A stretch of 64,000 bases of DNA from Candidatus Uhrbacteria bacterium RIFCSPHIGHO2_02_FULL_46_47 (GTDB taxonomy: Bacteria; Patescibacteriota; Patescibacteriia; GWA2-47-26): positions 2,621 to 66,620 of the forward strand of contig MGDU01000010.1 in NCBI GenBank assembly GCA_001790815.1. The letters run 5' to 3'. Of this stretch, positions 1,026-48,408 are shown in pieces. A program made the position numbers and the translations under genes. The notes below the pieces were generated by a model, which was not told the origin of the DNA, searched no databases, and saw only the letters and a list, made by a program, of their open reading frames with translations. Numbering within the stretch: the first letter of the stretch is position 1; each line of letters begins with the position of its first letter.

Positions 1026-4000
1026 ATGAGGAAAATATCCCTATTTCTCCTATTTCTTTTAATAGGAGGCGCTGTCATATTTGGCCGTGCCTTAACGGTT
1101 TTTGCTGTTGCCGGGATTCCAAAAGTAATTAATCACCAAGGACGGCTTCTTGACAGTAGTGGCAATTTGCTTGGCGGATCCGGGACCAATTATTGTTTCC
1201 GATTTTCCATTTATGATGATGTAACCGTGGGCGCTCCGGACACCAAAGTTTGGCCAGCTGGCACGCCTTCTACCATGACCGCGCAGGTGCGCAATGGGGT
1301 GTTTAATGTAGGGATAGGGGATACGGCGGCCGGCGGCGATACACTGGATTTTAATTTTCAAGATAATGATACTGTATTTTTGAATGTGGAAGTTGCCGCG
1401 CAAATAAGTAGCTCATGCGCAGGAGTAACATTTGAAACTTTAAGTCCGCGCCAGCGCGTAGCTTCTTCCGGGTACGCGATTAATGCTGATACAGTTGACG
1501 GGCTTAATCCCGGCACTGGCGCGAACAATCTTTTGAAACTTGGTTCATCCGGCGAGATCGCGCTTGGCGGAACTACTTATTTGACTGCCGCCGGCGCGCT
1601 TTCAAACATCGCAAGTCTTACCGGTTCAGGCGCGCTGACTATTACTTCAAGCGCCTCTGGCGCGATTACTCTTGATGCCGCTTCAAATGTGGTTGCTATT
1701 GCGGCGGGCGATGAATTACAACTTGGCACGGCCGCGGCAGACCCTACTGGCGCAAACGGCCGCGTATTTTATAACACGGCAACCAATAAGTTCCGCTGTT
1801 ATGAAAATGGCGCGTGGGCTAATTGCATTGGCGCGGGCGGGAGCAGTACTTTGCAAGATGCCTATGGCAATGGAAATACCATTACCACAACTGATGCCCG
1901 CAACATTCTTTTTTCACTTGCAGATACTGCGACAGATTCGGATTTTATCATAGATCTTTTAGGCACTGGCAACATATTTGAAGTGCGCGATAGCGGCGTA
2001 GCTGTCGTGACTGTGGCCGATGGCGGCGCGACAACCTTTACCGGCGCGGTTACAGCCAATGGTAATATCAATTTTGACGATGCTGGCGCAGATACGATTT
2101 CAATCGGCGCTGCAGCAGATACCGTGACAATTACCTCTGACACCCTGTCTTTGACCGACAATAACTGGACAATTTCCACAGTGGGCGCGGCTTCTTTTGC
2201 CTCGCTTTCGGTGGGCGGCGTTTCTGATCCCTACGTGGACGAAACCGGAGACACCATGACCGGATCACTGACTTTCTCCGCAGTTGCCACTGACCTTACC
2301 ACTGGCGTGAATGAAGCCCTGACCATCTCTCCCAATGGCACTGGCGACTTGGTGGTTGACACAGACGCTGACACCACCCTGACCTTAAACGGCGGAGGAG
2401 ACGGAGTTGATTCTCTGGTGCTTACCGACGGCGATATTCTTGTTTCTGACGGCGATCTTGACCTTTCCGGCGGGGACTTCAATGTTACGCTGGATGCCGG
2501 CGATACGGCCAACATTTCCAAAACCTCAGCCAATGCCGGGGATGTGGTGGCTTTAGCCGGCACCTCAGTCAATGCCATTGACGTGCTGGATCTCTCCGCC
2601 ACCTCTATAGCTGACGCGGTAGCGGATGCCATAAACGGCTTGGTAATTAACTGGACTGAATCCACTGACGCTGACACTTTCACTGCCTTAAACATCGGCA
2701 ATACCACCACCACCAATTCCGCCACCACCGGCATTTCCCTCGGCACAGGTTACGACACCGACTTAAACGCCACGACCGACCTGACTCTGGGCATCGGCGG
2801 AACGAATGAACTCACCATCACCTCCACGGCCACATCTCCCTCCACCTCAGACGGCAATGCTCTGGGCACCACCTCCTTAATGTGGGGCGATCTGTTCCTG
2901 GCCTCGGGCGGAGTGATCAACTTTGACAATGGGGATGTTACCCTCACCCATGCCGCTAATGCGCTCACCATGGCTGGAGGAAATCTAACAGTTACTCAAC
3001 CTGTGTTTACTTCCGGTTCGCCTTTCGGCTTAACCTTCACCGGCGGGGCGCATACCACGCTTGCGGCTGGAACGCAGGCAAAAGACATATACTTCAATCT
3101 TGGACGGACAGTGCAGTTTGCAACCGGAGCGTTGGCTAATCAGGAAGTAATTACGATTGACGCTCCGACTTACGCTTTCGTGGGAGCCTCAACGCTTACA
3201 GAGGCAACAACATTAAACATCTCCGGTGCGCCTCAACAAGGCACAAACGCCACGATTACAAACGCTTACGGACTTACGATTAGCCAAACCAATTACGCTA
3301 GCGCAAATGCCGTCCAGTCATTGATTGAAATGCCCGGGATTTCCAACGGAGCCGGAGCAATAACATCCCGTATAGGATTAATCATTGCTGATGCGGGCGC
3401 TAACATATCGCTTGGCAATCAAACCGCTACGCTTACTTTACTTAAAGGGCTTAGTATCAATACGGTAACCTATGAGTCCACCACAAATACCCGAACTGTC
3501 ACAAACGCGATAGGGGCAACCATAGCCGCGCCGTCTTCAGGTACGAATGTGACAATGAACACCGTTGTTGCTCTTGTCCTTGGCGATGACAACACACAGG
3601 CTAGCCAAACAGGATTTGCGTACGCGGATTTGGTAACCGGCGGCAACACTTTGACGCTTACTGGCACAACACAGCTCACCAACGTGCCTTCAATTTCTAG
3701 TGTCAATGTTGGCGCAACTACGATAACGGACGCTTCGGCGATTACGGTAGACAGCGTGGCCAGTGTTTATATTGAGGGAGCTCCAATCGCGGCAGGGTCG
3801 GTGACGCTTACGAATGCTTATGCGTTGTGGGTGGATGCGGGGGCTATTAGATTTGATGATCAAATCCAATGGGGAGCAGGTGTTGCAGTTACAGCAGGGA
3901 ATTATTCTGTCGGGAGAAACGCTGATGGTACGAATCTATTGCAACTTAACGTGCCAACTGGCTCAACACACGAGTTTTCCGTGAACGATGTTTCCCAAGT

Positions 4001-7000
4001 CAATGTGGGATTGGGCGGATTTAGCTTCCCTACTGGTGCCGCAATAACCGCGGCTGGTTATCAAGTTCTCCGCGATGCCGATGGAACGAATCAATTGCAT
4101 TTTAATGTTCCGACTGGAGCCACCTTTGAATGGTCGGTAAATGATGTTGCGGAGATGACGCTTTCGGCAACGGCGGTGAATTTTCAGAACAATTCCTTGA
4201 CTACGACTGGCGGTGGTTCGCTTACCGGTACTTGGACTGATTTGGGAAGCGTAACAACGATAGATATTAACGGCGGCACCATTGATGGCGCGACAATCGG
4301 CGGAGCGGTTGCAGGTGCAATCACTGGTACAACTATCACCGCTAATACCAATTTTGTCCCGGACGCGGATGACGGAGCTGGACTGGGTATTTCTGGTACA
4401 GCTTTCTCAGATTTGTTCTTAGCTTCTGGCGCAGTCATCAACTTCGCGGCTGGCGATGTAACGCTCACGCACGCTTCCAACTCCCTCGCAGTAGCCGGCG
4501 GCGACCTGAATGTGGATATTATTGATGGGCAAACTATTAACCTGGACGGGGATGCCAGCCCGACTGCGGATCTGGTAACCATTGGCTCTGGGGACACTTC
4601 GGCCACCGGCGGAGTGGACGCGCTACAGCTTACTTTCGGAACCTCCAATGTTTCAGGAAATGTCATTGATATTACACCGAGTTATGCCGGCGGAGCTACG
4701 GATCTTCTTTCCTACAAAATCATTGATATTGACGCTTTTTCTCCCACCAACGGCGCTGGCACTGATGGAGTTACTGGGATTGACTTTGGCGCGCTGACTG
4801 ACCCAGGCGCCACCATCAATTCTTTTGCCATGAATTTTGGCACGGGTTGGGACACGGATATCAACGCCGTTACCTCTTTGGAAATTGGCATTGGCGGCAC
4901 CAATGAGCTGGCACTCACGGCCACGGCTCTTGCTCCCTCCACCTCGGACGGCAATGCCCTGGGCACCACCGCCTTGATGTGGTCCGACCTGTTCCTCGCT
5001 TCGGGTGGAGTGATCAACTTTGACAACGGAGATGTTACTTTGACGCATGCGGCCAATGCGTTGACCATGGCTGGAGGAAACTTGACCGTCACCCAGCCGG
5101 TGTTTACTTCAGGTTCTCCTACCGGCTTGACCTTTACTGGCGGGGCGCATACAACACTTGCGGCGGGAACACAGGCAATAGACATAAACTTCAATCTTGC
5201 CCGAACAGTTCAATTCGCCACTGGCGCGTTAGCCAACCAAAGCGCGATAAACATCAGCGCGCCGACTTATGGTTTTGTCGGGGCTTCAACACTTACTACT
5301 GCGGAGTTGCTTACGTTAAGCGGATTTCCTCAGGCCGGAACAAACGCCACAATTACAAACGAGCGGATACTCCATATTGCCTCAGGCACAGCCAATGCCG
5401 GTATCGCATACAGTTTTTTCATTGATATGCCGGGGATTGCCAACGGCTTTGGCGCAATGACGAGCTTAGAGGGCATAATGCTCTCTGCGGGAGGCAATGT
5501 TTCTTTAGGGAACCAAACTGCTACTCTTTCTAATCTGATTGGGCTTAGCATTGATACTGTAACTTACGAGTCCACGACAAATGTAAGAACAGTGACAAAT
5601 GCAGTGGGAATGGTAATCTCTGCGCCATCTTCCGGTTCAAATGTCGTGATGAACACAGTGATAGCGGGCGCCTTTGGCGGAGATACAACGCAGGTGAGCC
5701 AGACAGCATTCCAATATGTGGATATTTTAACCGGCGGCAATACCCTGACGCTTACCGGCACAACGCAATTAACAGGAGCACCTTCAATTTCCAGCATTGC
5801 TGTTGATCCAATTACCATTACCGACGCTTCGGCAGTAACGGTTGATAACGCGGCAAGCGTGTACATCACGGGCGCGCCTATTGCGGCAGGGTTAGTTACG
5901 CTTACCAATGCTTATGCGCTTTGGGTTGATGCTGGGGCTATTAGATTTGATGACCATGTTCAATGGGGAGCAGGCGTTGCGGTTACAGCAGGAAATTATT
6001 CTGTCGGAAGAAATGCGGATGGTACGAATCTATTGCAGTATAACGTCCCGACTGGCTCAACGCATGAGTTTTCCGTGAATGATGTTTCCCAAGTCAATGC
6101 GGGATTGGGCGGATTTAGTTTCCCTACTGGTGCCGCAGTTACGGCGGCTGGTTATCAAGTTCTCCGCGATGCAGATGGTACAAATCAACTACATTTCAAT
6201 GTGCCCACAGGAGCTACCTTTGAATGGAGTGTAAACGATGTTGCCGAGATGACGCTTTCCGCAACGGCGGTGAACTTCCAGAATAATTCCTTGACTACGA
6301 CTGGCGGCGGTTCTCTTACGGGTACTTGGTCGGATTTGGGAAGTGTAACAACGATAGATATAAATGGAGGTACGGTGGACGGAGTAACGATTGGCGGAGC
6401 AGTGGCTGGAGCGATTACGGGAACGACCATCACAGCTACTACAAGTTTTGTAAGTGCAGTAGGTTCTGCCGCCGCTCCTACTTACACTTTCACAGGCGAT
6501 ACGAATACAGGAATGTCCGCGGCTACGGCTGATACGCTTATTCTCTCCACAGCTGGTGTCGCAGGATTAACGATTGATCCGACCCAGGACTTTACCCTAA
6601 CACAAGGCGTTTCTGCGACTGGTTCTCCTACCGGCCTTACCTTTACCGGTGGGGCGCATACTACGCTCGCGGCCAGTACAGAGGCGAGAGATGTTTACTT
6701 TGACCTTTCCAGAACAGTGCAGTTTGCAACAGGTGATATTACAGTGCAACGAGCAATGGTTATTGACGCGCCGACTTACGCGGCAGTTGGAGCAAGCAAC
6801 TTCACGCATACTTATGGTGTAGTCATTGACGGTGCGCCCAATCCGGGTACGAATGTTACATTTACCGGAATTTCCTCGGCTTTGAATATCGGGAATATGG
6901 ATAACGGGAACAATTATAGTCAAACAGAAGTTATTCATGGAATCGCCATGATTCCGGGTATTGCCAATGGTACGGGTGCCGTGGCAGAGCGCGGAGCATT

Positions 7001-10000
7001 TACCACTGCTCCGCCTGATTCAGGAATCCACCTTGGCAATCAAACCGCGACTTTGGATCTTCTTTATGGAATGGGTGCATTTGGCGGCCCGGTTGATTCA
7101 ACTACCAATACCCGCACGGTTACAAATGCCGCCACGCTTTATATTGATGGGCCGTTCAGCAATGCCGGAAATGTCACTTTCACCAACGGGCCTTATTCGC
7201 TTTGGGTGGATGCGGGGGCTATTAGATTTGATGATCAAATCCAATGGGGAGCAGGAGTTGCAGTTACAGCAGGGAATTATTCTGTTGGGAGAAACGCAGA
7301 TGGTACTAACTTAATGCAATTTAATGTACCTACTGGAGCGGCTTTTGAGTTCTCAATCAACGATGTTGCTCAAATTACTGGTGGTCTAGGGGCATGGAAT
7401 TATGCGGCTGGAGCTAGTTTTGCTGGAGGAGCCGCAAATTACATCATCGGAAGAAATGCTGACGGAACAAACCTCATGCAGTATAACGTCCCAACAGGAG
7501 CTTCGCATGAGTTTTCAATCAATGATGTTGCGCAAATAGCTATAGGTGGAGGTCAATTTTCCTTCATCACGGGTACGGCGACCGCTGGGGCTAGTTATTC
7601 TGTTGGACGAAATGCCGATGGTACGAATTTAATGCAGTACAATGTTCCGACTGGAGCTTCGCATGAGTTCTCTGTGAATGATGTTACCGAAATGACCCTC
7701 TCCGCAACAGCGGTGAATTTTCAGGATAATTCAATCACTACGACTGGCGGCGGTTCGCTTACGGGCACTTGGACTGACTTGGGTTCAGTTACCACGGTAG
7801 ACATCAACGGCGGAACGATTGATGGTGTAACTATTGGCGGAGCAGTTGCAGGGGCAATCACTGGTACAACTATCACAGTTAATACTAATCTTGTGCCAGA
7901 CGCGAATGACGGTGCAGGTCTTGGTATTTCTGGCACAGCATTTAGTGACTTGTTCTTAGCTTCTGGGGGAGTCATTAACTGGGCGGCAGGGGATGTAACA
8001 CTTACTCATGCCACAGATGCGCTCACCATGGCTGGAGGAAACTTGACCGTTACCCAGCCTGTGTTCACTTCCGGCTCACCCACCGGTCTTACCTTCACGG
8101 GCGGGGCGCATACCACGCTAACGGCTGGCAATCTTATTGATGTCAACTTCAACCTTGCTCGCACTGTTCAATTCACAACAGGTGCCGCGTTTGATTATTA
8201 CGGGGTTCAGATTTCGGCTCCGACTCTTGGAGCCACCGCCGCCACACAGACCATCTCAGGAACTACAATGTTTATCGGTGGCGGTCCAATAGCTGGAACG
8301 AATGTAACATTGAGTGGAAGCACCGCGCTAGAAGTGGACGGCTGGTTTTCCAATTCAGATATCGCGGATACCGTGTTTATTGATTATCCAGAGATCGCTA
8401 CTGGATTTGGCGCGGCGACAGAACGAGCCGCCTTAAGGATCGGAGGTGATACCTTCATTCTTGGTAATCAGACCGCCACTTTGACCGATCTGGCGGCCAT
8501 TAGCATTGGTCAAGCTACTTTCACATCCACCGACCTTGTCCGAACTGTTACCAATCCAAGCGCAATTTACATCGAGGGCGCGCCAGTGGCGAGTACGAAT
8601 GTTACTTTCACCAACGGGCCTTATTCCCTTTTTGTGGATGCCGGCGCCGCGCGGTTTGACGGCGCGGTGGCTTTGGGCGCCCAGCAATCGCTTACGGTGA
8701 ACTCAACCACCCCATCTGTTTCAGCTGGTTCCCACTTTGTTACGGCCAATTCTGCTGGAACGGTTATTAGCAATTTCACCAGCGGCCACAATGGGCAGAT
8801 CCTTGTCGTGGAAATCAACGACGCCAATACTGATTTTGACTGCACCGCTTCAAACCTTAATTGCGGTGGCGCGGACATCACCACTCCCGCGGCCGGAGAT
8901 CTTTTCACCTTCGCGTACGACGGCACGAACTGGAACCTCATCAACTGGATGGATACCTCCGCGACCCAAACCGGCGCGGATATTGCGGAATATATGTATG
9001 CGGATGCGGAGATTGCGCCAGGAACTGTGGTAGTGGCGCACCCAACGCGCAAAGAAGCTGTTATGGCGGGCGCGAAAGCTTATGACGCGACAGTGGTGGG
9101 CATTATTTCAGACGTTGAAGGTAAGTTGAGCGATATTCGACCGGGTCTCGTGCTTGGTGAAGGTCGCGGTAATGTGCCGGTCACTCTTGCCGGACGCGTG
9201 ATGGCGGCGTTTGATTTACAAAATGGTCTAGCATTTCCGGGCGATCCGCTTACCACCAGTACTAACGGCCGGCTGATGGTGGCTAAAAAAGCCGGCCCGA
9301 TTGTGGGCAAGGCCTTGAGTTTGGCCGAAAACGGATATGTGGTCGCTATGGTGAGCGTGGGTTGGTACAATCCCACGGATCTTTCACAAGTAAGCCAGGA
9401 GATGGAGGATTTGCGCGAACAAGTAAGAATCGCGCAAGCGGAAACTGCTCCAATAGAATTTACGCTGGAAGCCATGCAAAAGTTGGATGTTCGGGTTGCT
9501 AATCTTGAAACTTTGATTGCCGAACCGATAGAAGAGTTGTCAATACTTTCCAATCGCGTGGGAACCCTTGCGGATGCTTATGCGGAGGCGATAATATGGC
9601 GCGCAAGTGTTGAGACACAACTTATCGCGTTTACTGGTCGAACTGATACGCTGGAGGCGCGGGTAAATGCGATTGATCCTGTGCTTGAGGATTTGAAAAA
9701 TCGTTTGAGCGCGGTTGAGAATCCGTCACTGAGTGATGGTTCGGAAAATCACTCAGTGACAACGTTGGATTTGAGTAAGCTGGAATTGTCAGGCAGTTTG
9801 ACATTGCAAAGTGGGGCAACGATTTCCGGTGGTTTGCGCGTGGATAGCGTGAGCGCAATAGGGGATCTGCTGGCACTGATGAGTGATGTGAACTTTATTG
9901 GCCGGCCGTACTTTAACGCGGATACCGGAGGATTCGCACTTGTGAAAAAAGGTGAACGTGAGGTGCGAGTGGCGTTTACGCAAGAGTATTTGGAACAGCC

Positions 10001-10649
10001 GGTGGTAAACGCGACAATTTCACTTGAAGCCCTTGATGAATCAGCGCTTACGGAAGATCAGCGCGCTTTGCTTGATGAAGCGCAGAAAAAAGATTTGCTT
10101 GCCCAGATGCAGAGCGAACAAGAAGAGGCGCTTTTTACAAGTGGGGTGCGCTACTTGGTAACGCGCAAGAGTACCAAAGGATTTACGATTCTTTTGAGCG
10201 CGGCCGCTCCATCAGATGTGCGATTTAGCTGGATCGCGCTGGCAGTGAAGAACGCACGAACGCACACGAAAGTTGAAGATACACTAACGGACACGAACAC
10301 AAGTAGCGCGGCACTTGATGTGCCGCTGGAGGCACCCTCACCCCCGCAGTCATCCGACGCGGCTACGAACCCTCTCCCTGCGGGAGAGGGAGTAGTTTCT
10401 CCTCCGGATGATGCGGCGGTTCTTGAACCTGCCACAGAGCCCACGCCGGAAGGGCTAAGTCCTGTCGCAGGGCTTAGCCCTGAAACCAGCAACGCCCCAG
10501 AACCTGCACCTGAGCCAGTCGGGTCATCCGACCCGACTGCCCCGTCGGATGACGGGGCAGAACCCGCACCGGAAACCGCACCAGAGGCCACGCCAACCTC
10601 TGATATTTCATCCACAGATAGCATAGTTGCCACAGAGGAAACGCCATGA
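1026..10649 (+). CDS. giant (3207 aa) secreted/surface repeat protein, fibre/adhesin-like
   Basis: N-terminal signal/TM ([14 protein letters not shown]). Thr/Gly/Ala/Asn-rich beta-repeat modules are reiterated ([44 protein letters not shown] x3-4; [36 protein letters not shown] x3+). A C-terminal globular segment ([23 protein letters not shown]...WYNP) is followed by a coiled coil and a Pro/Ala/Glu-rich tail. The strand is uninterrupted for 9.6 kb. Confidence 0.85.
2791..8130 (+). repeat. intragenic long tandem/mosaic repeats (about 2.1-kb period) within the giant gene
   Basis: 2791-4886 vs 4887-6980 align with roughly 80-85% DNA identity, by eye. A third partial copy with extra [23 protein letters not shown] sub-repeats lies at about 7190-8130. 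Confidence 0.75.
9723..9760. repeat. palindromic insertion element, family D (TCACTGAGTGAT..ATCACTCAGTGA), in-frame in the giant gene
   Basis: 14-bp perfect inverted repeat with 11-nt spacer; encodes [14 protein letters not shown] near-identical copy sits at 13290-13328. Confidence 0.75.
10335..10391. repeat. GC-rich palindromic insertion element, family C, in-frame in the giant-gene tail
   Basis: CCCTCACCCCC...CCCTCTCCCTGCGGGAGAGGGAG; encodes [20 protein letters not shown]. Confidence 0.6.
10452..10483. repeat. palindromic insertion element, family B (GGGCTTAGCCC pair), in-frame in the giant-gene tail
   Basis: agggctaagtcct..cagggcttagccctg; encodes [10 protein letters not shown]. Confidence 0.7.
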
Positions 10650-16795: not shown

Positions 16796-16870
16796 GGCCC
16801 TATCGTCTAGTCCGGTCTAGGACATCTGCTTCTCAGGCAGAAGACCGGGGTTCAAATCCCCGTGGGGCTA
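16796..16870 (+). tRNA. tRNA-Glu (anticodon CUC)
   Basis: 75 nt: acceptor GGCCCTA/TGGGGCT (2 G-U), D-arm GTCTAG..GAC, anticodon stem TCTGC/GCAGA with loop TTCTCAG (U33, CTC, A37), T-arm CGGGG-TTCAAAT-CCCCG, discriminator A. CCA is not encoded. Confidence 0.75.
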
Positions 16871-16908: not shown

Positions 16909-18129
16909 ATGCCCAATCTTTGTTATTTTTGCCATTTTCATCGTGGGGATAAGAAGGAGAAAACAATTAAAATCGGGGGAAGTCTTTTAGTCGCAATAGC
17001 GCTTTTTATATTTGGATTTTCCATACAAATAAGTTCAGCGTCCGAGCAAGAGGCAGATTTTCTCGCCGCGTTAGTTCCTGAACCGGGATATTTGATAATG
17101 GCCGCAACCGACGCGGAAACAACAATGCCCGCGCCAATGTCTGTTTCCGAGCCGACTGCGCAAAGCGGCGGCACGGAAACAAAGTGTCCGTCGGGCGAAG
17201 AATATGGGAAAAACGATCAAGGGCAAATGACCTGTGTTAGGCGCGAAGAGGGTATGGAAATGAAAGGAGAAATGGACAATGAAAAGCAGGATGCGCAACG
17301 GGAGGAATTTGAAAAAGCGCAAATGGAGCGCGAGCGGAATGAGATTTTAAAGCGCCAACTTCCGCAACAGCGCCGGGAGCTTAACAAAGTTGTCAAGCAA
17401 TTAAAACGATTGAAAGGCGCCGATGACGATGTTGCATCCGCGCAAATAATTGCGGAATCTTTGAATACTCATGAGAGCGCGATTAAGAACGCGCGGGAAG
17501 TAGAGGATATGCGCGACGCGATTTCCGCGTATCGCGAAGACGAGATGTGGGAAAAGATTAATGATGTGCGGCGAAAAGTAGAGCTTCCGCGGGAACTAAA
17601 CTCTCTTTATAAAGAGTTGAAAAAAATTGAAAAAATATTGGCAACCAAATCATACCAAAAGCTTGGCTATAATTTAGAGGCGGTAAAAGCGCGATTGCAG
17701 GAATTATTTGCGATGCACAGCTCAGCCAAAGCCGCCTACGCAGAAGGAAACTTTGAAGACGCGGAAGCAACGCTTCAGGAGTTTCATAATAATTTTCCGG
17801 GCAATCTTCTTGGCGCGCTTGGCCGTTTGCGCGATATGCGCAATCAATTGCGCGGCATTAAAGATAAAGACTTCAAAGCCGATATAGAAGATTTACTGCA
17901 GGATCCGCTTGCGGACATTAATAGCGGTGAATGGCAAGACGCGCGTGAGTCGCTGGATGCGATTTGGCGCGAGCTTGGGCCGGTCGTTTGGCAGAAAATT
18001 ATGCGCAGTGAGAAAAACCGCAGCGGCGTGCCAGAAGAGATGTTTGAAAAGATTCAGAAACTGAAAGAAAAACTTGGTGAAGAAGGAGAAGAACCGCAAA
18101 CGCAAATGCCGCAGTCAACACCACAATAA
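16909..18129 (+). CDS. secreted/membrane-anchored Glu/Lys/Arg-rich coiled-coil protein, hypothetical
   Basis: N-terminal TM (LLVAIALFIFGFSIQISSA) followed by about 300 aa of highly charged predicted coiled coil. Confidence 0.55.
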   Translation: MPNLCYFCHFHRGDKKEKTIKIGGSLLVAIALFIFGFSIQISSASEQEADFLAALVPEPGYLIMAATDAETTMPAPMSVSEPTAQSGGTETKCPSGEEYGKNDQGQMTCVRREEGMEMKGEMDNEKQDAQREEFEKAQMERERNEILKRQLPQQRRELNKVVKQLKRLKGADDDVASAQIIAESLNTHESAIKNAREVEDMRDAISAYREDEMWEKINDVRRKVELPRELNSLYKELKKIEKILATKSYQKLGYNLEAVKARLQELFAMHSSAKAAYAEGNFEDAEATLQEFHNNFPGNLLGALGRLRDMRNQLRGIKDKDFKADIEDLLQDPLADINSGEWQDARESLDAIWRELGPVVWQKIMRSEKNRSGVPEEMFEKIQKLKEKLGEEGEEPQTQMPQSTPQ

Positions 18130-18406: not shown

Positions 18407-18440
18407 GCCAAGGTGGCAGAAGAGCACCTTGGCTTTTTTC
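18407..18440 (+). terminator. rho-independent terminator
   Basis: GCCAAGGTG-gcagaagag-CACCTTGGC followed by TTTTTTCATT. Confidence 0.7.
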
Positions 18441-31175: not shown

Positions 31176-31652
31176 ATGGCACAAGAAGAAAAACCAAAAA
31201 TAGTCCCAACTGAACAACCGCCGGAAATAGAAAAAATTCCTGAAGCGCCAAAAGAGGCGCCTGTCCTTGAGGTTCCAATGGAACGTCCGCCTGCGGAAAA
31301 AGAATTGCCGGCAAAAGCGCCGCCGCCAATTGCGCCGGCAGTGTTGCCGCCGGCAGTACCAGCAGATCCAGTGCTTAAGCAAATTGAAACAATCCTTGCG
31401 GAGGATTTGGAAGAGGTTTATGCGCAACTTCCGCCAGAGCTTAAGCCAAAGTTTAAGGTCAAGGGCGAGGAAGTCGCGAGCGCAATTCGCACTATGATGG
31501 CAACTGCCAAGATTAAAGCGCGCAAAGTATTAAAGCTCATTGCGCAGTGGCTCAAAATTATTCCGGGTGTGAACAAATTTTTTCTGGAACAAGAAGCCGC
31601 GATCAAAGCGCAGAAAATTATGGCTGTCGCGCAGGAGGAGAAGGAAGTATGA
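31176..31652 (+). CDS. Pro/Ala/Glu/Lys-rich protein, hypothetical
   Basis: 158 aa; a low-complexity PEAPKE/PPAV N-terminal half, then a helical C-terminal half. Confidence 0.5.
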   Translation: MAQEEKPKIVPTEQPPEIEKIPEAPKEAPVLEVPMERPPAEKELPAKAPPPIAPAVLPPAVPADPVLKQIETILAEDLEEVYAQLPPELKPKFKVKGEEVASAIRTMMATAKIKARKVLKLIAQWLKIIPGVNKFFLEQEAAIKAQKIMAVAQEEKEV

Positions 31653-31732
31653 TGCCAATATACGAATTTCATGCCAATCTACAAATTGCAAATTCGTATT
31701 TGTAGATTTGAATAAGATTTGTAGATTTGCAT
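31652..31732. repeat. family F intergenic element (ATGCCAATCTACGAATTTCATGCCAATCTACAAAT...ATTTGTAGATTTGAATAAGATTTGTAGATTTGCAT)
   Basis: Contains four TTTGTAGATT/AATCTACAAA half-sites in inverted arrangement. Begins at the stop of the upstream gene and ends 8 nt before the next ATG; copies at 40973 and 48320. Confidence 0.75.
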
Positions 31733-31739
31733 TACATTT

Positions 31740-40971: not shown

Positions 40972-40972
40972 A

Positions 40973-41053
40973 ATGCCAATCTACGAATTTCATGCAAATC
41001 TACAAATCGCGAATTTGTATTTGTAGATTTGAATAAGATTTGTAAATTTGCAT
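40973..41053. repeat. family F intergenic element, copy 2 (immediately upstream of murJ)
   Basis: atgccaatctacgaatttcatgcaaatctacaaatcgcgaatttgtatttgtagatttgaataagatttgtaaatttgcat. Confidence 0.75.
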
Positions 41054-41057
41054 TGTC

Positions 41058-42710: not shown

Positions 42711-42779
42711 TACGTGGGGCGGGATTGACAAAATAGGGTAAGAAGCGCAGGGTGGAAGTAGTTCCTAGGAGGAAAAATC

Positions 42780-43736
42780 ATGCAATCACGGCCAAGGCGC
42801 ACTCTCTATCAAGATAGGACATGGCTTAAGGTGCGGCTAAAGCGCGGCTTGACCGCGCCTCAGATTGCAAATCAGGTCAAAGTCAGCACGCCTACCATAA
42901 CACGATGGATCGCGATTCATGACCTTGTTGGATGTTCCTTGCGCGCGATTTGTCGCAATTATCTGAACAGACGCGCGCGGGCAACCTATGCCAATAGAGC
43001 GTGGCTTCGCGCAGAACTTGCGGCAGAACACACCTACAAAGAGATTGCCAAAAAGGTAGGCGTTTATCCGCTTACCATTGCCAATTGGGCCTTGCGGTTC
43101 AAGTTGGCTAATGGGCACCTTTCTCATACTGCCACTTGTACCTACGCCAATCAGAAGTGGCTGGCCGCCCAGATTGCGCGCGGGTTTCTTGATAGGCAAA
43201 TTGCTCACGAAACCGGCGTAACAGCTCACACTATAGAATATTGGCGCAAGCAGTTTGGCATCAGGTGCCCGCCGCGGCAGCGACCACCGAGAAATCTGAA
43301 GGAGCGGCGTGCTTTTGGGACGTGGCTTGCGCCGCGCCTGCATCGCTTAGCGCTCCCGGAGACACAAGGCGCTGCCCTTTGCGCGTATTACGCAGTAAAC
43401 GGCACTTTCTGTGAGCAGAAGCAATTGGCACAAGAGCAGGGAGTGACTCCGCATGGTATTGATTATCGCAGAACCAAAGCACTTGCGGTCATACTGGATA
43501 CCTTTGGCATGGGACAGCTCGCAAGATTTCCGGAGATAGTTAAGCGACGAAAAACACTTCAAGCGTTTGTGCCAAAGAAACAAACACACACGCTACGCAC
43601 ATATCGTGATAAGGCGTGGCTTAGGGCGCGCGTTGCGCGCAACTTATCCGACAAGCAAATCGCGAGCGAGGTTGGAAACACTAGTTTTACAACTATCGCG
43701 CATTGGCGTCGATCTTTTGGGATCACAAGGAGGTAG
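42780..43736 (+). CDS. protein built from tandem helix-turn-helix repeats (5-6 units, about 46 aa each), IS3-OrfA-like HTH
   Basis: Repeats of the form Y.N..WL...LA....K(E/Q)IA...GV...TI..W...FGI (e.g. YANRAWLRAELAAEHTYKEIAKKVGVYPLTIANWALRF). No transposase catalytic domain follows. Confidence 0.55.
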   Translation: MQSRPRRTLYQDRTWLKVRLKRGLTAPQIANQVKVSTPTITRWIAIHDLVGCSLRAICRNYLNRRARATYANRAWLRAELAAEHTYKEIAKKVGVYPLTIANWALRFKLANGHLSHTATCTYANQKWLAAQIARGFLDRQIAHETGVTAHTIEYWRKQFGIRCPPRQRPPRNLKERRAFGTWLAPRLHRLALPETQGAALCAYYAVNGTFCEQKQLAQEQGVTPHGIDYRRTKALAVILDTFGMGQLARFPEIVKRRKTLQAFVPKKQTHTLRTYRDKAWLRARVARNLSDKQIASEVGNTSFTTIAHWRRSFGITRR

Positions 43737-43893
43737 CGTTGAATTCATATGCCGACCGCGTCATCCCAGCGGCCGGCCTTATTTTTGACAATAAAGCGGT
43801 GTGGGCATTTTTTTATAAATACCGCATTCTCCAATTCGCGCGAATTGGAGAATGCATTCTGCGATTCTGCGGAATTGCGGAATGATGGCGGAA

Positions 43894-44300
43894 TAAAAAA
43901 AGCGCCCACCCCGAGAGTCCATTGGGTGGGCATTTACGCCGTGCGATCATGCAATGTGCCTGTTCCCAGGCCTGCTCCAGGTCCCACTGGAGAGAGGGCG
44001 GGCTCTCGTCGGTCTCAATGAGCCCTAGTTGCTGATGCACTTGTGGCTAGCTGTACTGTACGACCTTGCGGTCGGAAGGAGCAAATAAAGGGCGCCGGGT
44101 TCACCGCCGGTACGGCGCCCGAGAAACAATTACGGTGCGGGGAGTACCGGACTCCCACACAGAGCCGAGTCGTGCGCGTTCACGATCTCGGAGCATTCCA
44201 GCACGCCTAGTTGGCTCCCTTGCGAGAGTTGACCGCGCATCGGTCGTGCCGGCGGCCATTTTAAGGCCCACACATTTTTCTTATTTTTGACTTTTACTTC
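43894..44300 (-). ncRNA. candidate structured ncRNA of about 400 nt, family unassigned (RNase P RNA-like size, motifs inconclusive)
   Basis: Minus-strand consensus -35 TTGACA (44331-44336), 17-nt spacer, -10 TAAACT (44308-44313). The 0.6-kb gap has no credible ORF, is GC-rich and full of perfect hairpins including GNRA/GGAA tetraloops. It ends in a strong minus-strand terminator (43894-43931). Confidence 0.4.
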
Positions 44301-44307
44301 TGAATGC

Positions 44308-44336
44308 AGTTTAGCATAATCTGAATGCCTTGTCAA
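44308..44336 (-). promoter_or_regulatory. sigma70-like promoter (-35 TTGACA / -10 TAAACT) driving the minus-strand ncRNA
   Basis: The palindromic core CTTGTCAAG also supplies TTGTCA as a -35 for the plus strand, with TATGGT as a -10 just before lepA. Confidence 0.45.
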
Positions 44337-44366
44337 GGGGGGTAGAAATGGGGTATGGTGGGAGAC

Positions 44367-46337
44367 ATGGAACAATCGAAAATTCGGAATTTTTGCATTA
44401 TCGCCCATATTGATCATGGAAAGTCCACGCTCGCGGATCGGTTTTTGGAATTGACCGGAACAGTAGAAAAGCGGCAGATGAAAGAACAGCTTTTGGATCA
44501 GATGGATATTGAACGCGAGCGCGGCATCACTATCAAACTCGCTCCAGTCCGCATGAACTACGTACTACATACTACCCCCTACGTACTTAACCTAATTGAC
44601 ACCCCCGGCCACGTTGACTTCACTTACGAAGTTTCGCGTTCACTGGCGGCAGTGGAAGGCGCGATTTTACTGGTTGATGCAACTCAAGGCGTGCAAGCCC
44701 AAACTATTGGTAATCTTTATCTTGCGCTAGAGCAAAATCTCACAATTATTCCAGTGGTAAATAAAATTGATTTGCCCAGTGCCGATGTTGCTAAGACAAA
44801 GGCAGAACTCATGCATTTAATCGGATGCAAAGAAGAGGAGATTTTGGCAGTTTCCGGACGAACTGGTGAAGGTGTGCCGGAATTGTTGGAGGCGATTGTG
44901 GAACGCGTGCCAGCCCCTCACCCCAACCCTCTCCCACAAGGGGAGAGGGAGTTACAGAAATACCCCACTCCCTTAATGGGAGGGGATAAAGGGGGGGGTG
45001 TTTCGCTTCGGGCCTTAATCTTTGACTCCATTTATGACACGTATCGCGGAGTGGTGGCGTATGTGCGGGTATTTGACGGTGAAATAAAAAAGGGCGAGAA
45101 AATCATTTTCATGGCCACCAAGGCGCAAAGCGAAGCGCTGGAAGTTGGATTTTTCAAACCAAAATTTGTTCCCTCCGATTCACTTGGAGCCGGTGAGATC
45201 GGTTATATTGTGACTGGGCTTAAAGATATTGCCGGATGCCGCGTTGGAGATACTATTACGGGCTACACGCTACACGCTACAAGCTACACGGTTGAACCCC
45301 TTCCCGGCTATAAAGAAGTAAAACCCATGGTGTTTGCCGGAATTTTTCCAAAAGTAGGGGATGAGTATTCGCAACTGCGCGAGGCCATGGGAAAACTCAA
45401 ACTCAATGACGGCGCGCTTAGCTATGAGCCGGAAAAATCCACTGCGCTGGGATTTGGATTCCGCTGCGGATTTTTAGGACTTTTACATTTGGAAATTGTA
45501 GAAGAGCGTTTGCGTCGCGAGCATAACGTTGAAGTAATTACAACAGTTCCATCTGTGGCGTATCGGGTTAGCAAAACTGATGGTCAAGTGATGATAATCA
45601 AAGGCGCGCAGGAATTGCCTGATCAAAATTATATTCAAAAAATTGAAGAGCCGTGGGTCAAAATTGATGTGGTGGTGCCAAAAAAATACATTGGCGGAGT
45701 GATGCAGTTGGTACAAGAGAAAAGGGGAGTGTATGTGAATACGGAGTACATGCTACCCTCACCCCAACCCTCTCCCATAAGGGGCGAGGGAGAAAATCAG
45801 GTTCCCTCTCCCTCCATGGGAGAGGGAGATTCGGCCATGGACGAATCGGGTGAGGGGCGCGTAATTTTGCATTACGAACTCCCGCTTGCCTCAATTCTTG
45901 TGGATTTTTATGATAAACTCAAAAGCGTTTCTTCTGGTTATGCCTCGCTCAATTATGAATTGACCAAATACAAGGAAGCAGATGTGGTGCGACTTGATAT
46001 TTTAGTGGCTGAAGATCAGGTTGAGGCGCTGGCCACGGTTGTTTATAGCGATAGCGCGCAAGACTCGGGTCGTAAAATTGTGGAGGCGCTTAAAAAAACT
46101 TTGCCGCGCCAGCAATTTGAAATTAAAATCCAGGCCGCGCTGGGCGGAAAAATTATTGCTTCCGAACGCATTTCACCTTTGCGCAAAGATGTGACGGCCA
46201 AGCTTTATGGCGGCGATGTGACGCGCAAAATGAAACTTTTGGAAAAACAGAAAAAAGGCAAGAAAAAAATGGCGGCCATGGGCCACGGGGCAGTGGATAT
46301 TCCACCAGCGGCCTACCTTGCGGTACTGAAACGTTGA
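44367..46337 (+). CDS. lepA: elongation factor 4 (LepA) with two in-frame palindromic insertions
   Basis: MEQSKIRNFCIIAHIDHGKSTLADR (G1), DTPGHVDF (G3), NKID (G4). Family C insertions encode PAPHPNPLPQGERELQKYPTPLMGGDKGGGVS and LPSPQPSPIRGEGENQVPSPSMGEGD... Start taken at the homologous Met (ORF track 44355). Confidence 0.9.
   Translation: MEQSKIRNFCIIAHIDHGKSTLADRFLELTGTVEKRQMKEQLLDQMDIERERGITIKLAPVRMNYVLHTTPYVLNLIDTPGHVDFTYEVSRSLAAVEGAILLVDATQGVQAQTIGNLYLALEQNLTIIPVVNKIDLPSADVAKTKAELMHLIGCKEEEILAVSGRTGEGVPELLEAIVERVPAPHPNPLPQGERELQKYPTPLMGGDKGGGVSLRALIFDSIYDTYRGVVAYVRVFDGEIKKGEKIIFMATKAQSEALEVGFFKPKFVPSDSLGAGEIGYIVTGLKDIAGCRVGDTITGYTLHATSYTVEPLPGYKEVKPMVFAGIFPKVGDEYSQLREAMGKLKLNDGALSYEPEKSTALGFGFRCGFLGLLHLEIVEERLRREHNVEVITTVPSVAYRVSKTDGQVMIIKGAQELPDQNYIQKIEEPWVKIDVVVPKKYIGGVMQLVQEKRGVYVNTEYMLPSPQPSPIRGEGENQVPSPSMGEGDSAMDESGEGRVILHYELPLASILVDFYDKLKSVSSGYASLNYELTKYKEADVVRLDILVAEDQVEALATVVYSDSAQDSGRKIVEALKKTLPRQQFEIKIQAALGGKIIASERISPLRKDVTAKLYGGDVTRKMKLLEKQKKGKKKMAAMGHGAVDIPPAAYLAVLKR
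44914..45000. repeat. family C palindromic element in-frame in lepA (1 of 2)
   Basis: cccctcaccccaaccctctcccacaaggggagagggag...gggaggggataaaggggggggtg. Confidence 0.8.
45756..45857. repeat. family C palindromic element in-frame in lepA (2 of 2)
   Basis: ccctcaccccaaccctctcccataaggggcgagggag...ctccatgggagagggag...gggtgagggg. Confidence 0.8.
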
Positions 46338-48319: not shown

Positions 48320-48408
48320 ATGCCAATATACGAATTTCATGCCAATCTACAAATAACAAATAATTCATTCGCAATTCGTAGATTAGCATAAGATTTGTAG
48401 ATTTGCAT
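48320..48408. repeat. family F intergenic element, copy 3 (immediately upstream of rnhA)
   Basis: atgccaatatacgaatttcatgccaatctacaaataacaaataattcattcgcaattcgtagattagcataagatttgtagatttgcat. Confidence 0.75.

Follow-up and report, generated by a model that had tools for sequence, protein, structure and literature searches.

Long GC-rich intergenic regions are what the GC-IGR and DIMPL discovery pipelines for non-coding RNAs enrich for (PMC8723152, PMC11109978), and a candidate that has no homologues falls, in the GC-IGR pipeline, into the category 'Unnamed: insufficient evidence to classify' (PMC11109978). The closest described counterparts of the segment analysed here are the sRNA genes of the sRNAPredict type and those of the 'Unnamed' category (PMC11109978), with which it shares an intergenic position, a promoter of its own, a Rho-independent terminator, the lack of an ORF and a raised GC content. 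It differs from typical base-pairing sRNAs in being several-fold longer (about 400 nt), in having no homologues, in lying within a lineage-specific insertion and in being known from sequence alone. The large structured RNAs OLE, GOLLD, ROOL, HEARO and raiA resemble it in their size of several hundred nucleotides, their many helices and their several GNRA loops; however, they have many representatives, covariation and Rfam entries, whereas the candidate matches none of them, has a single representative and is predicted to resemble beads on a string, lacking a well-defined global fold. To our knowledge very few non-coding RNAs have been described from CPR/Patescibacteria beyond the universal ones, and our literature search returned little.

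The segment belongs to a window of 64,000 nt (the whole stretch of DNA that was analysed) from the genome of an uncultured groundwater bacterium (Candidatus Uhrbacteria), in which almost all genes lie on the plus strand. It is bounded by a gene for a 318-aa protein with repeated helix-turn-helix (HTH) modules (42780-43736, plus strand) and by lepA (ORF from 44355, plus strand), with MurJ as the upstream and RecJ as the downstream neighbour, and copies of the locus are present in near-clonal MAGs from the Rifle aquifer, for example RIFCSPLOWO2_12_FULL_47_10 (GCA_001791415.1, contig MGEO01000008.1). Between the stop of the HTH-repeat gene at 43736 and the first in-frame lepA ATG at 44355 there are 618 nt without a credible ORF. 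Within this interval, positions 43901-44250 have a GC content of 0.61-0.62, about 2.9 sd above the mean of the window (0.477, sd 0.049), which confirms the GC enrichment reported in the preliminary description; the block ranks second in GC among the 300-nt windows of the 64 kb. The highest-GC window of that size (0.65, around 10300) is found within a giant 3207-aa ORF (1026-10649). We tentatively propose, with somewhat less than even confidence, that the segment is a lineage-specific orphan sRNA gene on the minus strand, encoding an RNA of about 370-405 nt (from about 44301 to 43895).

The history of the locus was approached through the seven nearest LepA relatives (66-75% identity; L088, L089, L090-L092, L114 and L115), which were fetched with their flanks. 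In five of them (L090-L092, L114, L115) murJ directly abuts lepA with a gap of 4-50 nt, and in the remaining two the murJ-lepA slot holds cargo that bears no resemblance to the window segment, namely a 77-aa minus-strand ORF in L088 and a 185-aa plus-strand ORF in L089. The candidate region is missing from the syntenic site in all seven. Since the slot is empty or differently filled in these relatives, the HTH-repeat gene together with the 618 nt is best described as a lineage-specific insertion of 1.65 kb (42711-44354), and the murJ-lepA junction is a variable slot. Comparison with related genomes, from which the preliminary description had hoped for covariation, could thus yield no covarying pairs. 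Searches of the segment with nhmmer and blastn gave no match in 80 Patescibacteria LepA loci, and no homologous non-coding segment in the fetched LepA-anchored loci and the loci of HTH-gene homologues (including L093 and L094); a covariance model built from the single core sequence (44088-44193) and applied to 90 of these loci and the window (708 kb) found nothing but itself. The retrieved copies from the same population that span the region are 100% identical across it and differ only elsewhere or at a contig end, and so offer no evidence of covariation. A phage or plasmid origin is unsupported, as the phage search gave no match and the plasmid search only three chance matches of 26-33 nt. 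Exact-pattern viral scans returned nothing or high-GC chance matches only, and an exact-pattern metagenome scan with GGGAGTCCGGTACTCCCC returned 12 matches, all in unrelated contexts; the source locus itself was not among them, so that the collection may lack this population. No second copy of the block was found in the 64-kb window, in the metagenome and viral scans or in other contexts of the overlapping called ORF. Two assemblies of the same population, L085 and L086, have contigs ending inside the GC-rich block, at the equivalents of window positions 44195 and 44220; L085 carries a mismatch at the extreme contig end, and a coverage drop, strain heterogeneity or a repeat could explain the breaks.

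The candidate RNA gene would be read from a sigma-70-type promoter at 44308-44336 on the minus strand, which comprises a -35 TTGACA (44336-44331), a 17-nt spacer and a -10 TAAACT (44313-44308). It matches the consensus at 10 of 12 positions, its spacer ends in TG (44316-44315; TGcTAAACT), and the predicted transcription start is at about 44301-44305. The sequence of this promoter is therefore as the preliminary description gave it, but its weight as an independent promoter is reduced, because its -35 is what the conserved lepA -35, TTGTCAA, reads on the opposite strand (TTGACAA). The conserved lepA promoter, TTGTCA(AGG)-N18-TATGGT, occupies 44330-44359 on the plus strand, and the -35 hexamers of the two promoters overlap back to back on the palindrome CCTTGTCAAGG. 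An element of the form TTGTCAAGG...GGTATGGT also precedes lepA in L114, L115, L088 and L089; in L114 and L115 (LepA identity 75% and 73%, respectively) the order is murJ stop, TTGTCAAGG, N17-18, GGTATGGT, about 10 nt and the lepA ATG. The consensus minus-strand -35 occurs even in relatives that do not have the insert, and only the -10 TGcTAAACT is insert-specific. Being the mirror image of a palindromic lepA -35, the minus-strand -35 is weak evidence for a separate RNA gene. Divergent transcription from the lepA site is nevertheless made plausible by the geometry in L088, where an equivalent divergent promoter drives the 77-aa minus-strand ORF. The lepA gene itself probably starts at ATG 44367 (MEQSKIRNF...), the ORF start at 44355 being in all likelihood too far upstream. 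The distance from the lepA -10 to this ATG is 7-8 nt in the window and about 7-10 nt across the window, L114 and L115, and with a -10 that ends just before the probable start the lepA mRNA would have little or no leader. The lepA promoter of L088 and L089 lies about 200 nt upstream and precedes a repeat-rich leader. We also considered whether the sequence ahead of the HTH gene is a duplicate of the lepA promoter and discarded the idea, as the alignment was unconvincing.

At the other end of the putative RNA is an intrinsic terminator on the minus strand (43895-43932), UGCCCACCC-N12-GGGUGGGCG (43932-43903) followed by U7 (43901-43895), with a 9-bp stem (7 G-C) and a 12-nt loop. Terminators were scanned for on both strands as a perfect stem of at least 6 bp followed by T6 or more; the standard scan missed the stem at 43932-43903 owing to its loop of more than 8 nt. 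Only four strict T6+ terminators exist in the 64 kb on both strands, and this one is the strongest. The U7 terminator which had been placed about 400 nt downstream of the minus-strand promoter is indeed present. It sits about 370 nt downstream of the promoter, and there is no minus-strand gene for it to serve. A strong and correctly oriented terminator in a genome in which canonical ones are rare argues for minus-strand transcription, as does an ORF-free stretch of this length in a compact genome. An sRNA gene is generically expected to have its own promoter and, on that strand, an intrinsic terminator, with no ORF between them; this arrangement is found here, with the -35 shared with the lepA promoter. 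The sole strict canonical terminator on the plus strand of the 64 kb (18407-18433, a 9-bp stem followed by T6) stands about 280 nt past a gene end at 18129, within a stretch with only small ORFs (78 and 87 aa).

Between the two signals the minus-strand transcript would comprise an A/U-rich 5' leader that is predicted to be unstructured (44271-44301) and a GC-rich (0.61), ORF-free body (43936-44270) that is predicted to form local hairpins in series and two multibranch domains. All the perfect hairpins listed in the preliminary description are present in the sequence. The minimum free energy (MFE) of the full transcript has a z score of about -2.7 (-2.76) on the minus strand and of -2.1 to -2.2 on the plus strand; for the core without the terminator (43940-44270) the values are -2.0 and -1.3, respectively. 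The lower values on the minus strand were counted in favour of a minus-strand RNA, and the full-transcript value is partly owed to the terminator. In the genomic background, 72 random windows of 331 nt gave a mean z of -0.84 (sd 1.39), with 8 of the 72 at or below -2.4, and the ensemble diversity and positional entropy of the core equal those of shuffled sequence. As the core thus lies inside the genomic background and its ensemble is like that of shuffles, the high raw folding energy stems from GC content. The one strand-specific structural signal is an excess of GNRA-capped hairpins with 5-bp stems, of which the minus strand has three within 270 nt and the plus strand none: CUCUC-GCAA-GGGAG (44215-44228), CGACC-GCAA-GGUCG (44061-44074) and GCCUG-GGAA-CAGGC (43958-43971). 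Dinucleotide shuffles of the core (n=5000) contain 0.2 hairpins of this kind on average (P(>=3) = 0.0012), and of the 335-nt windows in the 64 kb about 0.5% have three. A pyrimidine-rich linker, UUUAUUUGCUCCUUC (44075-44089, minus strand), is single-stranded in both the MFE and the centroid structures; its CUCCU complements Shine-Dalgarno sequences of the AGGAG type, and we infer a candidate pairing site from this complementarity. The earlier picture of a novel structured minus-strand RNA therefore stands with respect to geometry, GC content and GNRA hairpins and loses ground in that the folding signal is ordinary, homologues are absent and the -35 is shared.

The protein gene that was inserted together with the segment belongs to a rare family, with only three other clusters among 5.8 billion proteins. 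Its 318-aa product has four or five HTH modules of the type TYANRxWL...GVSxxTIxxWRxRFGI around a centre that resembles sigma-70 region 4. AlphaFold predicts, with low confidence (pLDDT 72.7, pTM 0.34), three-helix modules strung together, and a fold search of the PDB with this model found nothing below E=0.1, only a generic likeness to the HTH domains of sigma factors and transposases. The homologues are tandem paralogues, located at 4980-7281 in L093 and at 734-3190 in L094.

The length of the putative RNA had been noted to fit RNase P RNA or tmRNA, and a divergent rnpB had been considered. With type A RNase P RNA the candidate shares the length, a GC content that is high for the genome and the short strings AGUCCGG and ACCCGGC, while it has no covariance match, is not conserved in relatives and carries its P4-like halves too near to each other and locally paired. 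In RNase P RNA, P4 pairs AAGUCCGG with CCGGCUU, and the two halves are set apart by most of the molecule, including the specificity domain. The partial RNase P-like strings that had been pointed out, AGUCCGG and GAACCCGGC, do occur and resemble P4 halves, but no more than about 48 nt separate them, and in the MFE and centroid structures each pairs within a local hairpin of its own; the long-range P4 pseudoknot is not found. Rfam 15, applied to the whole window at the gathering score, returned tRNA-Glu only, and a permissive scan of 43600-44500 (901 nt) at E<=10 returned none of RNase P RNA, tmRNA, SRP RNA, 6S RNA, OLE, GOLLD, ROOL, HEARO or raiA; the sub-threshold matches were to microRNA and sRNA models on a 32-nt palindrome and the terminator, with E values of 0.14-8.7, far under the gathering thresholds. 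ARAGORN likewise found no tmRNA in the window and only the tRNA-Glu (16796-16870). RNase P RNA (RF00010/RF00011), tmRNA, SRP RNA and 6S RNA were therefore rejected on the Rfam and ARAGORN results and the P4 geometry, and since such an RNA would not be expected inside an insertion that is missing from all near relatives, we regard a highly divergent housekeeping RNA of any of these four kinds as extremely improbable. Scarcely less improbable is a missed small protein gene, such as an arginine-rich minus-strand frame of 52-56 aa (44271-44101) or a degenerate HTH-gene paralogue. Both strands do contain open frames of 47-95 aa, gene callers set a 62-aa ORF at 43745-43933, and HTH-repeat genes are found in tandem in L093 and L094. 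Against it, the GC content by codon position is flat in the interval (0.60/0.57/0.66, compared with 0.59/0.37/0.47 in lepA), so that codon periodicity is absent; none of the seven ORFs of the interval has a Pfam match at E<=10; a concatenated six-frame translation has no match at E<=1 among 5.8 billion proteins; tblastn with the HTH paralogues and the relatives' cargo ORFs detects no similarity to the interval; and the candidate starts, on inspection of the sequence, are not preceded by a Shine-Dalgarno sequence. On the codon-periodicity, Pfam, six-frame and tblastn results a pseudogene or coding remnant was likewise rejected, and the earlier statement that the interval has no credible ORF holds.

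Much harder to set aside is the reading that the segment has no function and is left over from foreign or inserted DNA, such as a MITE-like element that has decayed or exists as a single copy; we consider this nearly as likely as an sRNA gene. The HTH-repeat gene is followed by a terminator-like hairpin with a T-rich tail (GCCGACCGC-N9-GCGGCCGGC, then CTTATTTTTGAC; 43751-43789, plus strand), and by this account it was that tail which would have taken up a block of about 490 bp (43790-44279). Any transcription would be incidental, entering from the mirror image of the lepA -35, and the minus-strand terminator would have arrived with the insert. On either side of the block stands one copy of the 12-nt sequence CTTATTTTTGAC, an exact direct repeat: the first (43778-43789) is that tail, and the second (44280-44291) lies within the 5' leader at +10 to +21 of the candidate transcript, where it reads GUCAAAAAUAAG on the minus strand (44291-44280). 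Direct repeats of 12 nt or longer appear in about 1% of shuffles (P ~0.01), yet in 8% of real 618-nt windows here. A duplication of 12 bp is at the long end of the range for insertion sequences. Just inside the repeat copies the block has inverted ends that match imperfectly (75% complementarity across 20 nt), but they are weak, as their 8-nt core (GTGTGGGC/GCCCACAC) is expected by chance in 600 nt. A remnant would also be in keeping with a lineage-specific insertion in a slot whose cargo differs among relatives, with a GC content foreign to the host, with the lack of conservation and the unexceptional folding energy and with the contig breaks of two other assemblies inside the block; it leaves the one-strand GNRA excess and the properly oriented strong terminator unexplained, no second copy was found in the window or the collections searched, and no transposase-related or other protein remnant was detected. 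Compared with MITE-like elements, the segment is alike in being a lineage-specific block of a few hundred bp beside a terminator, with a direct repeat and imperfect inverted ends, and different in its single known copy, its weak terminal inverted repeats and an interior that is not one long hairpin. Alternatively, the region may act at the DNA level as a regulatory or insulator region of the multi-HTH gene, which strikes us as rather unlikely. Its hairpin terminators would separate convergent and divergent units, its GC-rich core would have no RNA function, and the minus-strand promoter might only compete with the lepA promoter for the common -35; in favour of this account, the -35 hexamers of these divergent promoters overlap on one palindrome. 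Candidate binding sites would be the palindromes, the copies of CTTATTTTTGAC and three GCGGAAT direct repeats (43869-43894, plus strand; starts at 43869, 43877 and 43888, a spacing of 8 and 11 nt), which lie between the terminator and a perfect 32-nt palindrome, GCATTCTCCAATTCGC|GCGAATTGGAGAATGC (43824-43855). From their sequence, this palindrome and the phased GCGGAAT repeats resemble operators and may be putative sites for the adjacent multi-HTH protein; the palindrome is a candidate back-up terminator or protein-binding site. In L093 two of the HTH paralogues carry a conserved leader palindrome, GTCTTATTTTACGATCGTAAAATAAGAC, which shares CTTATTTT with the window repeat, but the shared 8-mer is found at seven places in the window, and the putative sites are all confined to the edges (43778-43895 and 44280-44291), so that the 335-nt GC-rich core is left unexplained.

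If the segment is an orphan sRNA gene, a 1.65-kb insertion between murJ and lepA would have brought an RNA unit and a multi-HTH gene into just one population of Candidatus Uhrbacteria. RNA synthesis would begin at the promoter that shares its -35 back to back with the lepA promoter, pass through the A/U-rich leader and then the GC-rich body of local hairpins, three of them GNRA-capped, and stop at the strong intrinsic terminator before the convergent HTH gene. The product may act in trans as a regulatory RNA that pairs through exposed pyrimidine-rich linkers such as UUUGCUCCUUCC, or it may be a partner of the co-inserted HTH protein. A more far-reaching version, in which it would found a new class of large GNRA-rich structured RNAs and form, with the rare multi-HTH protein, a horizontally acquired RNA-protein module at the murJ-lepA junction of a CPR bacterium, with a function unlike that of any RNA family described so far, appears to us improbable. 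What the analysis shows are the sequence signals, the noncoding character, the raised GC content, the surplus of GNRA hairpins and the history of the insertion; that the putative RNA is actually made is what we infer; as a candidate with one representative, the segment is mainly a flagged locus for metatranscriptome checking. If borne out, a 400-nt structured RNA confined to one Uhrbacteria lineage and gained along with a multi-HTH protein would represent a recent gain of a non-coding RNA in a reduced genome. For the annotation of the locus, the reading as a divergent RNase P RNA or tmRNA is removed, and part of the apparent promoter is recognised as a mirror image of the conserved lepA promoter.

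Elsewhere in the window, AT-rich, internally palindromic repeats of about 85 nt, built of CAAATCTACAAAT-like units, lie at gene ends (31652-31738, 40972-41054 and 48320-48408); REP-like or MITE-like elements are one possibility for them, bidirectional terminators another.
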